The notes beneath the pieces were generated by a model. That model saw only the letters and a list, made by a program, of their open reading frames with translations, ran no database searches and was not told the origin of the DNA. A stretch of 25,242 nt of DNA, from the IMG/VR virus record IMGVR_UViG_3300022561_001209; one strand, written 5' to 3'. Shown here in pieces: positions 811 to 10,313 of this stretch (positions are counted from its first letter, which is position 1; every line of letters starts with the position of its first letter). The position numbers were made by a program, and so were the translations under genes. This DNA is from a virus (taxonomy: Duplodnaviria > Heunggongvirae > Uroviricota > Caudoviricetes).

Positions 811-1575
811 TTAATTATTCTCTGTTTCATTTTTTAATATCCCTATTATATAAGAAAGTTCGTTGTTATCCAGTTTTCCGTCTTCTAATACTTTATTAAA
901 ATTCATCTTATTTCCATTTAACACAGTTACTAGACTGTCTAAATCATTACCGTTTAAACCTAGTGTGCTTAACTCGTTTATATAAGATGTTTCTTTTACT
1001 ATATCCTTTACATTTTTAGTCTTAACTTCTGCTATACTCATTTCTTTACCCATGTATTCCATTACTTTTTTAACATAATTCTGAGTTTCTTTGAATGGTG
1101 GTATTCCTCCGTATTTATCTACGTTTCCAGGTCCTGCGTTATATGCTGCTAGTGCTAACTTTACATCTCCGTCATATCTATCTAATTGATGACGTAAATA
1201 CTGTGCTCCACCCATTATATTCTGTTCAGGATTAAATGCATCTGTTACCCCTAACCCTGCTGCTGTCCCTGGCATTAATTGCATAACCCCCTGTGCACCA
1301 CAGCTTGAAACTGCTTTTGGATTGAAGTTAGATTCTGCCTTTGCCACTGCTTTTATTAAATTCACATCTACTCCGTAAATATCTGATGCTCTTTGAAATA
1401 TGTCATCTAAATCTGTTTTACCTATTTTATTTGCATTTGAAGCTATTACTCTGTTATCTTCTATTTTATCTGACAGTATGTTTGAGAAGTCTTTCCCTTC
1501 CTTTACCTTATTCTTATTTTTATTGTTTAAATAAGATAAGTAGACTCTACTGTTATTGTTTACATTTATATTCAT
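811..1575 (-). CDS. soluble lytic transglycosylase (SLT family) with low-complexity N-terminus
   Basis: [11 protein letters not shown] (catalytic Glu), [34 protein letters not shown] motifs; AAAGGA RBS. Confidence 0.93.
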
Positions 1576-2112: not shown

Positions 2113-2199
2113 ATCTCTTACCCCCACATTAAAATTACCATATAACTCTATAAATAAAAGATGTTTAAATATGCTTAATATATCTATCTATCTTACATA

Positions 2200-2238
2200 A
2201 AAATAACCATACAACTTATTCTATTGTATGGTTATTTT
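2200..2238 (-). terminator. intrinsic terminator ending the protein + ncRNA unit
   Basis: perfect 15-bp inverted repeat AAAATAACCATACAA / TTGTATGGTTATTTT, 9-nt loop, T-rich tail on the minus strand. Confidence 0.85.
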
Positions 2239-2281
2239 ATCTCATTTTATTTACCCTTCAACTTTTGGGTTATATTTATTT

Positions 2282-2631
2282 TAACATTGTGAACTATTCA
2301 GCCCAGTACAAACCTAAAGATAATTAGTCTAACTCTTACAAACTTCTTCTAGGATTTTATCGAATTTTTATATTTAAGACTTAAACTTTAATATAAAGAA
2401 TTTTGAACCCTAACTTTTGAACTGTGAATGCTGATGTTTGAACTTTCTCATTAATTAGTCCGTAGCGATAAGCAACCTGTTATCGCTCACGGAATCTAAT
2501 CCCATTTGTAATCGATATATAGATATATCAAAATAAGAAAATCACCAGTTTTCTTGTTCTTAATTTCAGGTTATTACCCCAACCAGAAAGGGGAGACTAA
2601 ATTTAAGATTTTCAAATAACCCACAATGTTA
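2282..2631 (-). ncRNA. putative ~350-nt structured non-coding RNA of unknown family
   Basis: no substantial ORF; 5' TAACATTGTGGGTTATTTG (2613-2631) pairs with 3' TGAATAGTTCACAATGTTA (2282-2300), a 10-bp perfect helix extended by G-U pairs valid only on the minus strand; internal hairpins ATTAG..TCCGT-G-AGCGATAA/TTATCGCT-ACGGA-CTAAT (about 2454-2500), AAGAAAA/TTTTCTT, GATATAT/ATATATC, CCCC/GGGG; lies between a stop codon and a terminator. Confidence 0.7.
2362..2446 (-). repeat. degenerate 7-nt periodic tract (11 heptamers + 1 octamer, consensus about AAANTTY)
   Basis: minus strand reads AAAGTTC AAACATC AGCATTC ACAGTTC AAAAGTT AGGGTTC AAAATTC TTTATATT AAAGTTT AAGTCTT AAATATA AAAATTC. Confidence 0.8.
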
Positions 2632-2643
2632 TTTTTTATTTAA

Positions 2644-2682
2644 TAGGTAGCTCGACTCCTCGTGAACGAGTCGAACAACCTA
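2644..2682 (-). other. GC-rich hairpin between the 212-aa gene stop and the ncRNA closing stem
   Basis: TAGGT-TG-TTCGACTC / GAGTCGAG-CT-ACCTA on the minus strand, 9-nt loop, no U-tract after it. Confidence 0.7.
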
Positions 2683-2696
2683 AGTGTTACCGTAAA

Positions 2697-3335
2697 TTAA
2701 TTTTCAACTACTATAGTGTTTTTAGAATTAGCTTCTGACAGACACATATCAACTTCGTTCTCAAACTCAATTATTTCTGTTCCCATCTTACTAATTACTT
2801 CCGTTAATTTTAGAGGGTCAACAAATACTGTCTTGTTAGCCTCCCAACGTGCTTTAGCCATATCTTCAGACGTTTTAACTAAGTCTTTATTGTTCTTATC
2901 AGAAGATATTAAACTCTCTACTAATTTTTCATTAGCCATATCTAATTGAATATTAGCTGATTCCAAACTAGATGTTGCTCTATTTAAGCTTTTCTTCAGA
3001 ACTTCTAAAAAGTTCTTTTCGTATGATATAGATGTCTTTCTTTCTATAGCATCTGCCACTGTATATGTATTTCCTGCAATTTCTATGTTATTCCCAGCGT
3101 TTGATTTAACTATAGCTGATTTAAGCTCTTTTCTTTGACTAATTAAATCGTTTACTGATTCAAATGCTGCTTTTACTTGTTTCTCATATTCTTCGACAGT
3201 TAAAGTCCCGTTCTGTACTTTATCAGCACTGTTTTTTCTTGTTTCTACGAAGGTTGTTTCTCTCATTGCCTTATTTATTTTATCGTCAAGTAACTTCAAT
3301 GTCTGTAATGCTCTTGTTATAGATATCTCTCTCAT
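2697..3335 (-). CDS. 212-aa alpha-helical/coiled-coil protein, distantly DIP1984/DUF6847-like
   Basis: GGGGA RBS; ITRALxxLKLLDxKI ... AIVKSN ... IAGNTYTVADAIERK ... EVDMCLSEAN parallels the LAEAL...RINxxN...TL.E.I..RD...D..IQ..N pattern I associate with DIP1984-type proteins (from memory). Confidence 0.85.
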   Translation of the reverse strand: MREISITRALQTLKLLDDKINKAMRETTFVETRKNSADKVQNGTLTVEEYEKQVKAAFESVNDLISQRKELKSAIVKSNAGNNIEIAGNTYTVADAIERKTSISYEKNFLEVLKKSLNRATSSLESANIQLDMANEKLVESLISSDKNNKDLVKTSEDMAKARWEANKTVFVDPLKLTEVISKMGTEIIEFENEVDMCLSEANSKNTIVVEN

Positions 3336-3380
3336 ATTTTATCCCCTTATTCTTATAATTTATTTTTATTTCATATACCT

Positions 3381-3409
3381 ATTATAAACTAAAACTTTTA
3401 CTTTGTCAA
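3381..3409 (-). promoter_or_regulatory. consensus sigma-A promoter driving the 212-aa protein + ncRNA
   Basis: TTGACA (3404-3409), 17 nt, TATAAT (3381-3386) on the minus strand; A-tract upstream. Confidence 0.9.
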
Positions 3410-3483: not shown

Positions 3484-3777
3484 TCAATCAATTTTTACTA
3501 TTTTCATTTCAGGATACAATTCTTTTATTTCTTCTAAATCATTTAACATTCTTGTGTAATGTCTTCCTTCTTCTTTTTCAGTGAATACCCCAACTTCCTC
3601 TGTTTTGTTACATACCTTGCATTGTCTACCTTTACTTATGAACCTATGTTTATCTGTTGTAACTATAACTTCTTCATATTCATGTTTATGGTTTGACTTC
3701 TTTATTTTCCTACTACCCTTTTTCTTTCTGTAAGGTATCTCTTTGTCTAAACAGTAATAATTTTCATCCCTAGCCAC
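3484..3777 (-). CDS. basic hypothetical protein with HxH...CxxC motif, 97 aa
   Basis: ORF with GGAGGGG RBS; KKSNHKHEYE...CKVC. Confidence 0.8.
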   Translation of the reverse strand: MARDENYYCLDKEIPYRKKKGSRKIKKSNHKHEYEEVIVTTDKHRFISKGRQCKVCNKTEEVGVFTEKEEGRHYTRMLNDLEEIKELYPEMKIVKID

Positions 3778-3804
3778 TTTTATACCCCTCCGTAAATACC
3801 CTTA

Positions 3805-4116
3805 TCAATCTAATTCACATAACATCAGTTCAAATGTCATTCCACAACCCCTTATTACTAAAGGTCTATGTCCTTCTTTTATCATTGTTATGTCAAAGTC
3901 CAATTCCCAACCGTTGTCATTTCTATTCTCTTCTTCATATCCTAATTCTTCAAGTAATTCCCCTAATCTAGAAGGATTTAATTCAGTGTCTGAAAAATCT
4001 TTTTCAAGCAATTCTTTTCTTTCTTCTATATCTATGTTTTCTACTTCTCCTATAAACTGTTCTACTATAGGTGTAAATTTAATTTTTACTTCTTCAGTTA
4101 AATGCCATCTATTCAT
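3805..4116 (-). CDS. acidic hypothetical protein, paralog of 5702..6031
   Basis: AGGAAG RBS; shares KDFSxTxLN...LLExxGYEE and RPLxIxGxGxxFELxL with 5702..6031. Confidence 0.85.
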   Translation of the reverse strand: MNRWHLTEEVKIKFTPIVEQFIGEVENIDIEERKELLEKDFSDTELNPSRLGELLEELGYEEENRNDNGWELDFDITMIKEGHRPLVIRGCGMTFELMLCELD

Positions 4117-4131
4117 ATTTATCTTCCTATT

Positions 4132-4692
4132 CTATGCTGCCAATATGCCTACAACAGCTATAAATAAAATTATTGATACTGCAATTATGCATACTGTACT
4201 TATCATAATTCCTGCTATAGCTAAGCCTTTCCCTTTTTCCCCTGTTCTATTAACTTCACTAAGTCCTTTTATAGAGAATATTAAACTTATTATAGGTACT
4301 ATACCAAACAATGATATAGGTACAGAAACTAAAGATAATATAAACCCTATTAGTGCATTATCATTTGTTCCTACTCGATTGTATGATTGTCTAGAACTAT
4401 TCATAGGTCTACCCATACTTTGCCTACTATCGCTTGTCCCACCTTCTCTTGCTCCAGGTCTACTACTGCTTGCCCCAGGTCTATTATTACTTGTTCCGCC
4501 TTCTCTTGCTCCAGGTCTACTATTATATATTACTCTTTCTGCTGGCATAGGTGCTGGCATAGGTCCTTGTATCTCTTCATCTTGTTCTTGTTTAATCTCT
4601 TCACTTGGATTTTCTGTTTCTAATGCGTTTCCGCAATGTTCACAAAACTTCGCTGTCTCTGTTACATCTCCGTTACATCTCGTACATTTCAT
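4132..4692 (-). CDS. Zn-ribbon + repetitive linker + DUF4190-like multi-pass membrane protein, 186 aa
   Basis: N-terminal CTRC...FCEHCG; RPGAREGGTS repeats; hydrophobic C-terminus with GEKGKGLAIAGI; AGGAGG RBS. Confidence 0.85.
   Translation of the reverse strand: MKCTRCNGDVTETAKFCEHCGNALETENPSEEIKQEQDEEIQGPMPAPMPAERVIYNSRPGAREGGTSNNRPGASSSRPGAREGGTSDSRQSMGRPMNSSRQSYNRVGTNDNALIGFILSLVSVPISLFGIVPIISLIFSIKGLSEVNRTGEKGKGLAIAGIMISTVCIIAVSIILFIAVVGILAA
4433..4522. repeat. intragenic direct repeats encoding SRPGAREGGTS
   Basis: 33-nt copies at 4433-4465 and 4490-4522 (2 mismatches) with a partial copy at about 4469-4486. Confidence 0.85.
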
Positions 4693-4719
4693 AAATTTTC
4701 CTCCTATGGTTTTGTTTAA

Positions 4720-4787
4720 TTAATGCCTTAATCTAAATACATATCCCCTATGTTTTATATACTTAGAGCAAGGCATTAACCCTGCTT
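4720..4787 (-). promoter_or_regulatory. pair of mutually exclusive RNA hairpins in the leader of the membrane-protein gene
   Basis: TTAATGCCTT / AAGGCATTAA plus inner TCTAAGTATATA / TATGTATTTAGA (2 G-U pairs on the minus strand) versus AGCAGGG-TTAATG-CCTTGCT. Confidence 0.5.
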
Positions 4788-4965
4788 ATAACAATACAGC
4801 TATTTCTTCAATAACTTTAAGTCCTAAACCAACAGCCTCTACCCCTAATTTAATTGCCTGTGAAGCCAAGTCTATAACTGGAATTACTAACCTCTCTTGT
4901 TCAAAACCTCTCATTAAATCTGTTAATGATGCCCCTTTTAGTGAATCAATGATAAATGTTAACAT
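4786..4965 (-). CDS. 59-aa amphipathic/hydrophobic peptide (MLTFIIDSLKGASLTDLMRGFEQERLVIPVIDLASQAIKLGVEAVGLGLKVIEEIAVLL)
   Basis: manual translation; GAAGGAGAG RBS; just under the ORF-track cutoff. Confidence 0.8.
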   Translation of the reverse strand: MLTFIIDSLKGASLTDLMRGFEQERLVIPVIDLASQAIKLGVEAVGLGLKVIEEIAVLL

Positions 4966-5042
4966 AACTTTCTCTCCTTCTAATTTTTATTAGTTTTAAG
5001 GATTAAACTGTAACCATCTTATCATTAGTTCACCATAAATCA

Positions 5043-5413
5043 TTATTCTATATTTTTGATTTCATTCAATAGTTCATATTCAAAATAGTGCTTATGAATT
5101 GTTGCTATGATGCAATCCATCATTCCTTCAATTTCATCTATGTATATTTCATTTCCATTATGTTTAAGTATCATAATTGTATCTAACTTACATTTTATAA
5201 CTAGTATTTCACCCATTAATTGACAATGTTTTATCTGCTTTATACCTTTTAATTCTTTTTCCAAAGATTCTAAAGAACTTGTATTACATGCCTTTAATAT
5301 GTTCTTTATAAATATATAGTCTTCATAAATGTATTTTGTTACTTTATTATCTCTGTATTTCTTACTAATTTATTCATTTCTTCTTTAATTTTATTAATAG
5401 GTGCATTATACAT
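5043..5413 (-). pseudogene. frameshifted hypothetical gene (24-aa ORF 5339..5413 plus a frame open from 5369 to 5043)
   Basis: AAAGGA RBS + ATG at 5411-5413; the frame of the annotated 73-aa TTG ORF is open 35 codons further upstream and overlaps the 24-aa ORF; one -1 shift joins them. Confidence 0.6.
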
Positions 5414-5454
5414 ATCACTGTCATCCTTTCAATTACATTTTTTATTGTAATTTT

Positions 5455-5483
5455 ATTATAACATAAAACCTAACCTTTGTCAA
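5455..5483 (-). promoter_or_regulatory. consensus sigma-A promoter
   Basis: TTGACA 5478-5483, 17 nt, TATAAT 5455-5460; AATTACA-N8-TGTAATT inverted repeat at 5431-5452 over the expected start site. Confidence 0.9.
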
Positions 5484-5503
5484 GACTTTTTATAATAATT
5501 TTA

Positions 5504-5686
5504 TTAAACTTTTTTAAACTCGTCCTCTAATCTTTTTATCACTTGTCCGTAAATACTATCTCAGATTTTCCTAGTATTTCAAATAGTTCAGTTATTTTTA
5601 ATTCTGTATTATTAAACATTTACTTTCTCTTCATTATAAATAAAGTTATATATTTTATTTACACGTGTATTTTTGTCTTTAACCAC
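5504..5686 (-). pseudogene. possible decayed small gene (three overlapping coding-like segments)
   Basis: AGGGA RBS + GTG; MVKDKNTRVNKIYNFIYNEEKVNV / NNTELKITELFEILGKSE / DSIYGQVIKRLEDEFKKV joined by two 1-nt shifts. Confidence 0.35.
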
Positions 5687-7652: not shown

Positions 7653-7949
7653 TCATATACATATGTTTATTTTATATAATTAAGGATATGTAACTTCTGT
7701 TAAATGTTCTCCGAAATAATCTGTTATTAAATTATACTTTTGTATAACCTTACTTTTAATGTCTTTTCAAATTCCCATCTTGTATTTATAATTCTGAAGT
7801 AGCAATTTGTATGTGCAATAATCTTTTCTTTCTCTCATTATTTTTCTGTCTTCAAGCATATTTAAGATGTCTTTTATGTTTTACCCACCAAGTTTAATGT
7901 CTAACCATTTTAAATCGTTTGTTCTTTTTGTCATTATTACTTTAATCAT
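7653..7949 (-). pseudogene. probable pseudogene with in-frame stops
   Basis: ATG 7947-7949 after AAGAGAG; single frame MIKVIMTKRTNDLKWLDIKLGG*NIKDILNMLED...KMGI*KDIKSKVIQKYNLITDYFGEHLTEVTYP*LYKINICI* with stops at 7881, 7767, 7680. Confidence 0.5.
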
Positions 7950-7992
7950 GTCTCTCTTTTCTACTTTAGTTTATAAATATCTTATTAACTAT

Positions 7993-8021
7993 ATTATAAA
8001 CTAATTTTAAACATTTGTCAA
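7993..8021 (-). promoter_or_regulatory. consensus sigma-A promoter
   Basis: TTGACA 8016-8021, 17 nt, TATAAT 7993-7998. Confidence 0.9.
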
Positions 8022-8057
8022 GACTTTTTTTAATAATAATTAAAAATTTAATTAAAT

Positions 8058-8092
8058 AAAAAAATAACCGTCAATTAATTGGTGGTTATTTT
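8058..8092 (-). terminator. intrinsic terminator after the cca/U32 operon
   Basis: AAAATAACC...GGTTATTTT stem followed by a T-run on the minus strand, directly after the U32 stop. Confidence 0.75.
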
Positions 8093-8095
8093 ACT

Positions 8096-8980
8096 TTAGA
8101 AACATTTCCTATCGCATGTTTTACATTTAAATTCACAGTTTCCTTCAGCCATTCTTGAATATTTATACATTCTGTCTTTTAATATAAATCTTAGTAATAA
8201 TCTAATTACATCTGTATTTTCTACCAATTCTATATCAAAATCACTTTCTCCTGTATAGTAATTTAAACAACTTTCGTAAAGTTCTGCTGATTCACTTCTA
8301 TCAACTAATTTTATTGTGTTTATGTAAGGTAGTACCTTCATTAACACCTGTCTAGGTATAAAATATGAATTTAAATCATTAGGACATATGAAGTCACCGT
8401 ATATACGTCTGTCTGTTTTAAATAAATGTTTATCCATATTCATGCATGCAGGATTACAGTGGTGATTACATAAATAAACTAAGTTTACTTTCTTACTTGC
8501 TTCTCGTAAATATTCTTCATCTAGCATTTTATGATATGCTACAACTATGCTATCAAATCTTTCGTCTATTTCTTCATTATATGAATTTCCCACTATACTT
8601 CTATGAAACTTCAATCCCTTGTATATTGATTTTAATTTATAGAATTCATTGTCCCATTTAGTCACCATAAATCCTCTTACACCTAATTCACAGTATTTTT
8701 TTATTACATCTATATCCCCCTTAGGATATGTAATTACTATAGGTTTATGCACTAATATTCTTTTTATCAAATTAAAATATTCTTCTCTATCATATTTATA
8801 TAGAAACACCCTTCCAGACAATCCATCAGTACCATGTACTGGCATATATACTGATTGTATATAATCAGGATTTAAGTACTGTTCATTATTTGTTATGTTA
8901 TCGAACAGTACTTCCTCACCTTCAAATGTTAAAGGTATTTCAAATATTTCTCTAAAGTCTTCATTAAATTTTTGTCTCAT
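8096..8980 (-). CDS. peptidase U32-like (TrhP/RlhA/UbiUV superfamily) TIM-barrel Fe-S protein
   Basis: GLSGR, GVRGFMV, FDSIVV, LCNHHCNPAC, FICP, FIPRQ...IKLVDRS (cf. KIEGR/KISGR) and C-terminal CEFKCKTCDRKC follow the order of motifs in U32-like proteins. Confidence 0.7.
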   Translation of the reverse strand: MRQKFNEDFREIFEIPLTFEGEEVLFDNITNNEQYLNPDYIQSVYMPVHGTDGLSGRVFLYKYDREEYFNLIKRILVHKPIVITYPKGDIDVIKKYCELGVRGFMVTKWDNEFYKLKSIYKGLKFHRSIVGNSYNEEIDERFDSIVVAYHKMLDEEYLREASKKVNLVYLCNHHCNPACMNMDKHLFKTDRRIYGDFICPNDLNSYFIPRQVLMKVLPYINTIKLVDRSESAELYESCLNYYTGESDFDIELVENTDVIRLLLRFILKDRMYKYSRMAEGNCEFKCKTCDRKCF

Positions 8981-8993
8981 TTATATTTCCCCT

Positions 8994-10313
8994 TTAGCAA
9001 TGTTTTAATAACTCTTCTTTTGTGTTATCTATTTCCTCGTTTATTACCATTTCAAGTAATCTGTTTAATGTTTCTCCTATTTCTTTACTTGGTTTATATC
9101 CCTTTTTAATTAAATCATCTCCGCTTATTGCTAAACTTTTTAACGTAAAACTTAAATCATCTAATTCTAAATTATCAATCATTTTTTCAATTTCATCTAA
9201 CATATTTAATCTTTCTTCAGGTCCGATTACACCTTGCTGACCTTTTACATCAGCTCTATTTAACTTTAGGAGTTTTCTAAATGTACTCTCACCCAATTTA
9301 TTTATCATTCTTTTTATAAACTTAGTTGTGACTGAAAGTTGAATGTCATGATATTTTATTAATGTTATTATTTCTTCTATTTCTTTATTACTAAATCTAA
9401 GTCTGTTTAATATCTCTTCTGCTAACCCTCTTGAAACTTCAGCGTGTCCGTAAAAATGCCCTATATTTTCCACTGGTTTTTCTGTATAACAATATGGTTT
9501 ACCAACATCATGCAATAATGCTGCTATTTTCAATATTCTATCGTTTTCTGATTCTCTAACTACTTCTATAGTATGTGTCCACACATCATTCTTATGATAA
9601 GGATTGTTTTGCTCAAACCCATCTGATTTTTCCAATTCAGGTATTATTTCGAATATCACATCTTTAAACTCTCTTAATATTCTACTTACCCCTTTACCTG
9701 TAAGTATTTTGCTTATCTCTACACTTATTCTTTCAGCTGACACATTTTTTAATTTGTCTTTAAATGTATGAATAACTTCTGCTGTCTCATTCTCTATTTC
9801 AAAATCTAATACTGAAGCAAATCTCAATGCTCTTAGTATTCTTAAACTGTCTTCACCAAATCTTTCACAAGGACTTCCTACACATCTTATTATGCCTTGT
9901 TCTAAATCTGACTTACCTCCAAATATATCTATTAAGCCATCCTTTTCAGAATAAGCCGTTGAATTAATAGTAAAGTCTCTTCTACTTAAATCCTCCTCTA
10001 TTTTATTCGTAAATATTACTTCATCAGGGTGTCTACCATCTGAATAATCACCATCTATTCTGTATGTAGTTACTTCAAAACCTTCTTCACCTAACATAAC
10101 AGTAATAGTTCCGTGTTTCAATCCTGTTGGTATCACTTTGTATGACTTAAACACTTTCAGCATCTGTTCAGGTAATGCGTTTGTGCATATATCCCAATCT
10201 TTAGGTTCTTTGTTTAACATACTATCTCTGACACATCCACCTACAACGTATCCATCAAATCCTGCCTTATTTAATTCATTTATTATTTTAACTGCGTTCC
10301 CGTTTAGTTTCAT
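8994..10313 (-). CDS. cca: class II CCA tRNA nucleotidyltransferase with HD domain
   Basis: VGGCVRD...DWDICT, EVTTYRID + YSDGRHP loop, RRDFTINS, EDSLRILRALRF, SAERI, HD motifs HKNDVWTHT / LLHDVGKP / FYGHAE / YHD. Confidence 0.95.
   Translation of the reverse strand: MKLNGNAVKIINELNKAGFDGYVVGGCVRDSMLNKEPKDWDICTNALPEQMLKVFKSYKVIPTGLKHGTITVMLGEEGFEVTTYRIDGDYSDGRHPDEVIFTNKIEEDLSRRDFTINSTAYSEKDGLIDIFGGKSDLEQGIIRCVGSPCERFGEDSLRILRALRFASVLDFEIENETAEVIHTFKDKLKNVSAERISVEISKILTGKGVSRILREFKDVIFEIIPELEKSDGFEQNNPYHKNDVWTHTIEVVRESENDRILKIAALLHDVGKPYCYTEKPVENIGHFYGHAEVSRGLAEEILNRLRFSNKEIEEIITLIKYHDIQLSVTTKFIKRMINKLGESTFRKLLKLNRADVKGQQGVIGPEERLNMLDEIEKMIDNLELDDLSFTLKSLAISGDDLIKKGYKPSKEIGETLNRLLEMVINEEIDNTKEELLKHC

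Follow-up and report, generated by a model that had tools for sequence, protein, structure and literature searches.

The subject of this report is a two-part module encoded in a 25,242-nucleotide stretch of DNA from a virus of the class Caudoviricetes (IMG/VR record IMGVR_UViG_3300022561_001209), the whole of which is referred to here as the window. The module occupies positions 2197-3409 of the minus strand, which carries all of the genes in this part of the window. It consists of a gene for an acidic, helical protein followed by a large, structured non-coding RNA (ncRNA), and it is one copy of a unit that is widespread among phages. Its features, in the direction of transcription, are as follows:

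3381-3409, minus strand: sigma-70-type promoter, with TTGACA at 3404-3409, a 17-nucleotide spacer, and TATAAT at 3381-3386 (12 of 12 consensus positions matched).
2697-3335, minus strand: open reading frame (ORF) for a 212-residue acidic helical protein of the T5.085/phrog_1491 family, with a probable DIP1984-like fold and modeled as a homodimer.
2645-2681, minus strand: optional strong hairpin, G+C-rich, located past the stop codon and ahead of the RNA, with 15 base pairs and no U-run after it.
2286-2627, minus strand: structured ncRNA core of 342 nucleotides, comprising both strands of the closing helix P1 and all that lies between them, recognized by conserved blocks, covariation, and matches to the family hidden Markov model (HMM).
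2197-2235, minus strand: intrinsic terminator, an A/U-rich stem of 12-15 base pairs followed by UUUUUAU.

The 569 nucleotides of the gene strand between 2697 and the start of the next gene at 2127 contain no ORF of 40 or more residues, and the ORF-free portion up to the terminator amounts to about 460 nucleotides. A first-pass annotation, made from the sequence alone, had listed a perfect TTGACA-N17-TATAAT promoter, one ORF of 212 residues, about 460 nucleotides devoid of a substantial ORF, and a terminator, and all four were located here, the last as a hairpin with a U-run. Since the promoter is perfect and a terminator is present, the whole is read as one transcription unit, and a self-contained arrangement of promoter, gene, RNA, and terminator is thus supported.

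Searches of the window DNA with megablast and blastn against phage and plasmid collections gave no matches, as did a first scan of IMG/VR with the single protein sequence and with two strict DNA patterns. With tblastn, the protein was found in 746 phage records. Two metagenomic relatives, L005 and L004, encode proteins that are 72% and 65% identical, respectively, to that of the window. The DNA downstream of their genes shares long, near-identical blocks with the window, and the intervening hairpins swap sequence but keep their pairing; a hairpin in the variable region, for example, is compensatorily replaced in L004. The strong hairpin at 2645-2681 is found in the window and in L005 and is missing in L004, and it may be a processing site or a protector of the mRNA 3' end. 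In Clostridium phage D-1873 and its relatives the protein identity is only 40%, and the same RNA is present in the same architecture. By such comparisons the RNA is more strongly conserved than the protein.

An RNA profile was built from the alignment of the window and its relatives and iterated on the 700 nucleotides that follow each homologous gene. Of 82 distinct regions of this kind, drawn from IMG/VR, the phage collection, and metagenomes, 81 gave a match, in most cases over the full length, and the RNA begins 3-60 nucleotides past the stop codon in most loci. For the phage, IMG/VR, and metagenome loci, the match lies behind the gene and on the same strand in 97 of 97 cases. As a control, 529 kb of loci were scanned on both strands, and every one of the 99 matches fell at the expected place and on the expected strand. 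The sole positional exception is Bacillus phage KLEB27-3 (L002), in which the RNA is 1.37 kb downstream of the gene, at 4996-5353 in an unannotated gap of 1.1 kb, with three small ORFs (3596-4542) intervening. The linkage was also examined from the side of the RNA, with an RNA motif pattern used to pull loci from IMG/VR and the profile then used to confirm the true RNAs. All 28 RNAs confirmed in this manner are immediately preceded, on the same strand, by the protein gene (28/28), and the other 91 loci were chance matches to the pattern that contain neither element. In bacterial genomes, mostly as Bacillota prophages, the RNA follows the gene in 79 of 80 loci. Gene and RNA are thus obligately linked across very distant phages.

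The carriers include T5, many T5-like Salmonella and E. coli phages, Pseudomonas KIL-type phages, Klebsiella and Vibrio phages, Bacillus phage Bcp1, Lactococcus 949-type phages, large C. difficile phages (LIBA6276), and C. botulinum phages, such that the hosts are both Gram-positive and Gram-negative. In T5 the gene is T5.085, which carries the annotation "tail fiber protein", and the 363-nucleotide gap between it and the next promoter is taken up by the RNA, at about 43,140-43,500 of NC_005859 on the minus strand. The module was also seen on contig DASQNU010000236.1 (L247), which belongs to a metagenome-assembled genome labeled Candidatus Bathyarchaeia, and in a Parabacteroides bin; these may be viral contigs that were mis-binned.

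The ncRNA region of the window folds at -129.9 kcal/mol, versus a mean of -94.4 kcal/mol for shuffled sequences (z -6.2), and none of 100 shuffles was as good. A common structural plan was read from about 40 diverse members placed side by side, and its elements in the window are the following:

2615-2627 with 2286-2298, minus strand: closing helix P1, formed by AUUGUGGGUUAUU and AAUAGUUCACAAU.
2594-2614, minus strand: conserved GAAAA junction after the 5' strand of P1, then the 5' strands of P2 and P3.
2567-2593, minus strand: H-type pseudoknot, with stem 1 formed by CCCC (2590-2593) and GGGG (2577-2580), and stem 2 by CUGGUU (2581-2586) and AACCUG (2567-2572).
2460-2529, minus strand: lineage-variable hairpins, the point of transfer RNA (tRNA) insertion in three related phages.
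2362-2446, minus strand: 7-nucleotide-periodic array of about 11 units of the ANNNUUC or AAAGUUC type, interrupted by the small hairpin CUUUAUAUUAAAG at 2386-2398.
2299-2361, minus strand: 3' domain, which holds the conserved GAUAAAAUCC, encloses the 3' strands of P2 and P3, and ends in the conserved GGCUG (2299-2303).

P1 varies from 12 to 20 base pairs across the family; in the window it lies close to the closing helix claimed in the first-pass annotation (2613-2631 with 2282-2300). In P2, CUUAAA (2602-2607) pairs with 2313-2318, and in P3, UUAGUCU (2594-2600) pairs with 2324-2330; both 3' partners are situated within the 3' domain. That domain is closed by P5, in which CCUAG (2349-2353) pairs with CUGGG (2302-2306). 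Across the family P5 takes the form CCNNG with CNNGG, and the near-invariant AAAUCC and GGCUG flank the domain. P5 encloses the 3' strands of P2 and P3, which creates pseudoknots in addition to the H-type one. The latter reads CCCC-UUU-CUGGUU-GGGG-UAAU-AACCUG in the window, is built from CCUCG/CGAGG and CAGCGGU/ACCGCUG in T5, and from CGC/GCG and GUGGUU/AACCAC in D-1873. P4 was seen by inspection and as three RNAalifold pairs only.

Covariation was evaluated by an alignment-free test in which the 3' partner given to each 5' strand came either from the same sequence or from another family member (partner permutation). Sequence anchors set the test windows for P2 to P5; windows set by HMM columns or by the hmmemit consensus missed the register of the helices and yielded no signal. 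For P1 the z value is -15.8, with none of 1000 permutations reaching the observed value. The corresponding values are -7.5 and -20.4 for stems 1 and 2 of the pseudoknot (0/1000 each), -16.4 for P5 (0/2000), and -8.0 for the P2 plus P3 segment against the interior of P5 (0/2000). RNAalifold on seven sequences from the window, its relatives, and the D-1873 group (alignment A3) returned 39 pairs, 14 of which show compensatory double changes; P3 covariation is present in this alignment. A 3-base-pair "UCU/GGG" helix in the same A3 output is probably wrong, the family having CUUAAA/UUUAGG. In alignment A4, six of eight pairs are compensatory. When 33 diverse 3' domains were examined with RNAalifold, the three central pairs of P5 were never broken and displayed 5, 16, and 21 double changes. 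A family-wide run on the HMM-column alignment failed, because the sequence profile does not align the helices.

The strand on which the structure is selected can be read from its wobble pairs, given that G-U and A-C were allowed equally when the helix registers were picked. There are 50 G-U versus 2 A-C pairs in P1 and 10 versus 1 in P5; for stem 2 of the pseudoknot, the ratio of 33:22 is uninformative because loose windows were employed. The excess of G-U over A-C in P1 and P5 indicates that the structure is selected in the RNA of the gene strand rather than in an antisense RNA or in the DNA. The first-pass annotation had made the same argument from the window's closing helix, and it holds across the family. 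The RNA is therefore a real, strand-specific, and multiply pseudoknotted family.

The periodic array is positioned upstream of AAAUCC. Its first block reads AAAGUUC AAACAUC AGCAUUC ACAGUUC AAAAGUU AGGGUUC AAAAUUC, and its second block, which follows the small hairpin, AAAGUUU AAGUCUU AAAUAUA AAAAUUC. The letter autocorrelation over 73 distinct members peaks at lag 7 (z 23.6) and at lag 14 (z 19.9), and the hexamers AAAGCT, AAAGTT, and TCAAAG are enriched about fivefold, on this strand only. The units cannot pair with one another, and hence the array is probably single-stranded.

The RNA family is absent from Rfam 15. At gathering thresholds no family was assigned anywhere in the window (GOLLD, ROOL, drum, transfer-messenger RNA (tmRNA), RNase P, 6S, OLE, and HEARO included), and at E values up to 10 only four chance-level matches arose in 2100-2800. 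At the RNA sites of 28 distinct related loci, nothing was found at gathering or at E values up to 5. ARAGORN detected neither a tRNA nor a tmRNA in the window. The first-pass annotation had likewise matched the RNA to no tRNA, tmRNA, or named motif, and had proposed the Rfam scan as a check. It had further suggested a recurring association of such proteins with similar non-coding regions downstream, which the profile searches of homologous loci show to be correct, and the collection of homologs, downstream comparison, and covariation analysis that it called for yielded the conserved RNA block and its compensatory changes. It had overlooked the pseudoknots, the 7-nucleotide repeat array, the association with phage tRNA operons, and the copy of the module in T5. 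A search of the literature on T5.085, Tequintavirus ncRNA, T5 stable RNA, and DIP1984 turned up no description of the RNA, the older papers on T5 small RNAs having been outside its reach.

The protein of the window matches the phrog_1491 profile over residues 1-211 (E 1.1e-57). A single-sequence AlphaFold2 model, with a predicted local distance difference test (pLDDT) score of 61, was replaced by one based on a 42-sequence alignment (pLDDT 91.6), which displays long helical hairpins and small beta elements. The best structural match is 3kdq_A, with a VIA-align Z of 11.1 over 151 of 152 residues; the next has a Z of 7.8. The same entry is the top Foldseek match in the PDB (probability 1.00, E 6e-3) and is also among the Atlas structure rows. 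It is a C. diphtheriae protein of the DIP1984/DUF6847 type, a family labeled "septicolysin" that has no established function. Since helical folds inflate Z values, the window protein can be said only probably to share the DIP1984/DUF6847 fold. Pfam PF20935 (DUF6847) gave no match to the window protein at E values up to 1 or to the 42 family members at 0.01. There was no meaningful match of the window protein in Pfam, NCBIfam, or PADLOC and nothing significant in a PDB sequence search, and a fold search of the Swiss-Prot portion of AFDB gave chance-level helical matches only. The isoelectric point (pI) of the window protein is 5.24.

When modeled as two copies, the protein forms a symmetric assembly with an extensive interface and a score of 0.59, versus 0.00 for the best control; that mark was attained by 20 of 30 solved homodimers and by 1 of 23 monomers. 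Across the three runs at least 97% of contacts are shared and pLDDT values are never below 88, and the modeling supports a homodimer. No support was seen for the "tail fiber protein" label of the phrog_1491/T5.085 family, which we regard as a mis-annotation because the genes occupy early or tRNA regions and the models show a helical dimer. The label has spread over hundreds of T5-like, KIL-like, and rV5-like phage records.

Many copies of the module are found in the company of tRNAs. tRNA genes occur within 2.5 kb in 40 of 73 IMG/VR loci, with 120 of 120 tRNAs on the same strand as the module, and the nearest downstream tRNA typically begins immediately behind the RNA. In three phages a tRNA is located inside the RNA itself, namely tRNA-Thr at L040:3238-3314, tRNA-Ser at L066:3203-3277, and tRNA-Tyr at L077:2237-2326. 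These inserts sit in the variable region, past the 5' pseudoknot domain and ahead of the heptad array; elsewhere in the relatives the tRNAs are separate genes. Normal processing of an inserted tRNA would split the RNA into two halves joined by P1 to P3. Only 7 of 80 prophage loci have a tRNA within 1.5 kb. The module is thus often part of phage tRNA operons but is not dependent on them. The window itself encodes, at 8994-10313 of the minus strand and about 6 kb from the module, a 439-residue phage tRNA nucleotidyltransferase (CCA-adding; phrog_2244, E 3.5e-77).

In the D-1873 locus (L001), the 1.2-kb gap after the gene holds both the family RNA, at about 4663-4977, and the Rfam drum RNA (RF02958), at 5407-5514 of the plus strand with 47.7 bits, which is above gathering; a tRNA-like sequence lies between them. 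In one IMG/VR phage, a match resembling the twister-P1 ribozyme (L035:3490-3551) follows directly upon the 3' end of the family RNA. At 41.3 bits (E 1e-5) it falls below the gathering score of 67.2, and this element might process the 3' end of the RNA. The second gene downstream of the module in the window (811-1575, minus strand) codes for a 254-residue lytic transglycosylase with an SLT domain, and a transglycosylase or cell-wall hydrolase is also found near the module in T5 (T5.083), JLBYU40, and KLEB27-3.

Sequence runs recorded as RNA were available for the T5 copy (L234), the relevant stretch of which is present in 13 of them. In libraries from three studies a contig breaks at 7943-7980, which corresponds to the 3' edge of the RNA. 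In one T5 library, 7965-8299 was assembled as a separate contig, and short contigs end at 8330 with adapter sequence directly after them. Position 8330 is 3 nucleotides past the stop codon of T5.085 and 7 nucleotides before P1. These ends give a moderate hint of a discrete RNA species of about 366 nucleotides in T5. In one T5 RNA library a single contig (X13) covers both the gene and the RNA. The DNA of the window was found only in glacier-metagenome runs, with no RNA run listed.

In the model that we favor, dimers of the protein load onto the heptad array of the co-transcribed RNA, and the resulting ribonucleoprotein (RNP) particle acts alongside the phage tRNA set. Host RNA polymerase would transcribe the unit early from the consensus promoter, and the RNA would be freed as a discrete species, in many phages through the processing that frees the flanking tRNAs. 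A rigid core with multiple pseudoknots, composed of P1, P2 and P3 docked into the P5-closed 3' domain, and the H-type pseudoknot, would leave about 11 seven-nucleotide units exposed, on which several dimers would load in register. We infer binding from the near-absolute adjacency of gene and RNA over great evolutionary distance together with the exposed, evenly spaced array; the stoichiometry and the cellular target in this model are likewise inferences. By analogy, an evenly spaced array would suit an oligomerizing reader such as TRAP or HutP.

Several points weigh against such a particle. The family is acidic, with a median pI of 5.27, which is unusual for an RNA binder, and its fold resembles only that of DIP1984/DUF6847, for which no function is established, and generic helical hairpins, neither being a known RNA-binding fold. 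A common function exercised without contact, or an action of the RNA in cis, could also account for the tight linkage. Finally, the T5 runs are assembled contigs, from which neither levels nor strand can be read. Because the protein is acidic and has no RNA-binding fold, we hold belief and doubt in the RNP model to be evenly matched. A bolder version of it, which we put forward tentatively, would be a new class of phage RNP in which a helical dimer polymerizes in a 7-nucleotide register on a pseudoknot-anchored RNA. Such a particle would be made early, at the same time as the tRNAs, its target would be host translation, tRNA metabolism, or an RNA-targeting defense, and it would be conserved from T5 to Bacillus and clostridial phages and prophages. 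The first-pass annotation had also proposed an RNP, with a role as scaffold, decoy, or anti-defense factor. What has stood is a real, linked, and uncatalogued RNA unit; binding and those particular roles found no support beyond the linkage and the repeat array.

The RNA might instead work alone, either as a ribozyme or as a self-assembling, ornate RNA comparable to GOLLD and ROOL, in which case the protein would be a coupled neighbor that might, for example, serve as chaperone or regulator or share the target of the RNA, and not a stable subunit. An ornate, pseudoknotted core with the invariant junction nucleotides GAAAA, AAAUCC, and GGCUG speaks for this alternative, as do the location in or beside phage tRNA arrays, the tRNAs sometimes embedded in the RNA, and the acidity of the protein. 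The linkage, however, which is one-to-one, adjacent, and on the same strand in all but one of about 200 loci, is tighter than loose coupling predicts, and a single-stranded array with a 7-nucleotide period resembles a multi-site binding platform more than a catalytic core. We thus consider an RNA acting by itself to be unlikely.

It is improbable that the RNA is a bait, the array and possibly the tRNA-like context of which soak up a host RNA-binding factor or a defense nuclease, with the protein as a helper or unrelated. RNA sponges do display short, exposed, repeated motifs such as those observed here, the consensus promoter suggests early expression, and counter-defense genes occur in the tRNA-rich region of T5-like phages (bioRxiv 10.1101/2023.03.15.532788). 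A sponge needs no intricate pseudoknot core, however, and the protein has no PADLOC match. The target would also have to be universal, because the module is carried by phages of both Gram-positive and Gram-negative hosts.

The chance is slimmer still that the RNA is a cis-acting 3' untranslated element which controls the stability, autoregulation, or processing of the protein's own mRNA. Its constant orientation and its start immediately downstream of the gene, 3 to about 60 nucleotides past the stop codon in most loci, would be expected of such an element, as would the T5 contig that spans gene and RNA. A length of about 340 nucleotides with five covarying helices and at least two pseudoknots, on the other hand, goes far beyond the needs of known 3' stabilizers. 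Moreover, the RNA of KLEB27-3 lies 1.37 kb away behind three ORFs, a tRNA splits the RNA in three phages, and the separate T5 contig with its adapter-marked end suggests a released species. An element that functions as DNA (an origin, iterons, or a partition site bound by the protein, with the structure incidental) would fit the A/T-richness, the short direct repeats beside a small helical protein, and the plasmid-like nature of some carrier prophages such as the C. botulinum phages, but it is very improbable in light of the compensatory helices, the 50:2 preference for G-U over A-C on the gene strand only, the strand-specific repeat motif, the occurrence in RNA libraries with defined ends, and the tRNA genes inserted in register and on the same strand in 120 of 120 cases.

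An intricate RNA of 340-370 nucleotides with its own partner gene has thus gone unannotated in hundreds of sequenced phages, including the classical model T5. Widely conserved, complex, pseudoknotted RNAs have usually proved to be mechanistically new, and T5 and the Bcp1-type phages are tractable, such that the function of this one is directly testable. The finding also corrects a widespread mis-annotation of the protein as a tail fiber.

Two previously described phage factors were considered as members of the family and were ruled out. The long ncRNAs of phage K (PMC9241854) come from a phage that lacks the protein, and the anti-retron protein Rad of T5 (10.1101/2023.03.15.532788) is a different protein of 189 residues rather than T5.085. 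With respect to DIP1984/DUF6847, the window protein is about 60 residues longer and has extra helices.

The type III toxin-antitoxin systems (ToxIN, AbiQ/antiQ, and CptIN) are alike in that a protein gene and a repetitive ncRNA form one phage-related unit. Their repeats, about 34-45 nucleotides long, precede the toxin gene and are cleaved by an endoribonuclease that is rich in beta structure. In the present module, in contrast, the repeats are 7 nucleotides long, lie downstream of the gene and within a folded RNA, and accompany an all-helical protein without a PADLOC, Pfam, or NCBIfam match, and the module is not a member of the group. The resemblance to TRAP with the trp leader and to HutP with the hut RNA is one of concept only, namely an oligomeric protein that reads evenly spaced, short RNA units. 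The module differs in its 7-nucleotide period, its large structured RNA core, and a helical dimer in place of a beta-rich ring, and the structure searches gave no similarity in fold or sequence between TRAP or HutP and the window protein.

Stable non-tRNA RNAs of about 100-140 nucleotides, such as species 1 and 2 of T4 and the low-molecular-weight RNAs of T5, lie among phage tRNA genes. We know of no pairing of these with a protein gene, and in the open literature no paper was found that ties them to T5.085 or its locus.

The closest parallels are GOLLD and ROOL. GOLLD lies in or beside phage tRNA arrays, sometimes with embedded tRNAs. Like GOLLD and ROOL, the RNA described here is encoded in phages and prophages, often in or beside tRNA arrays, has an intricate pseudoknotted fold with a variable internal region able to hold a tRNA, and is of no established function; the phage location and the tRNA-array association both apply to the family, the window itself being without a tRNA. 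It differs in matching neither covariance model, in its much smaller size (about 340 nucleotides), in its 7-nucleotide-periodic array, and in having the same protein gene ahead of it at every tested locus except one. To our knowledge, no comparable link to a protein gene exists for GOLLD or ROOL. The module is thus a protein-linked addition to the unexplained ornate RNAs that travel with phage tRNA arrays.

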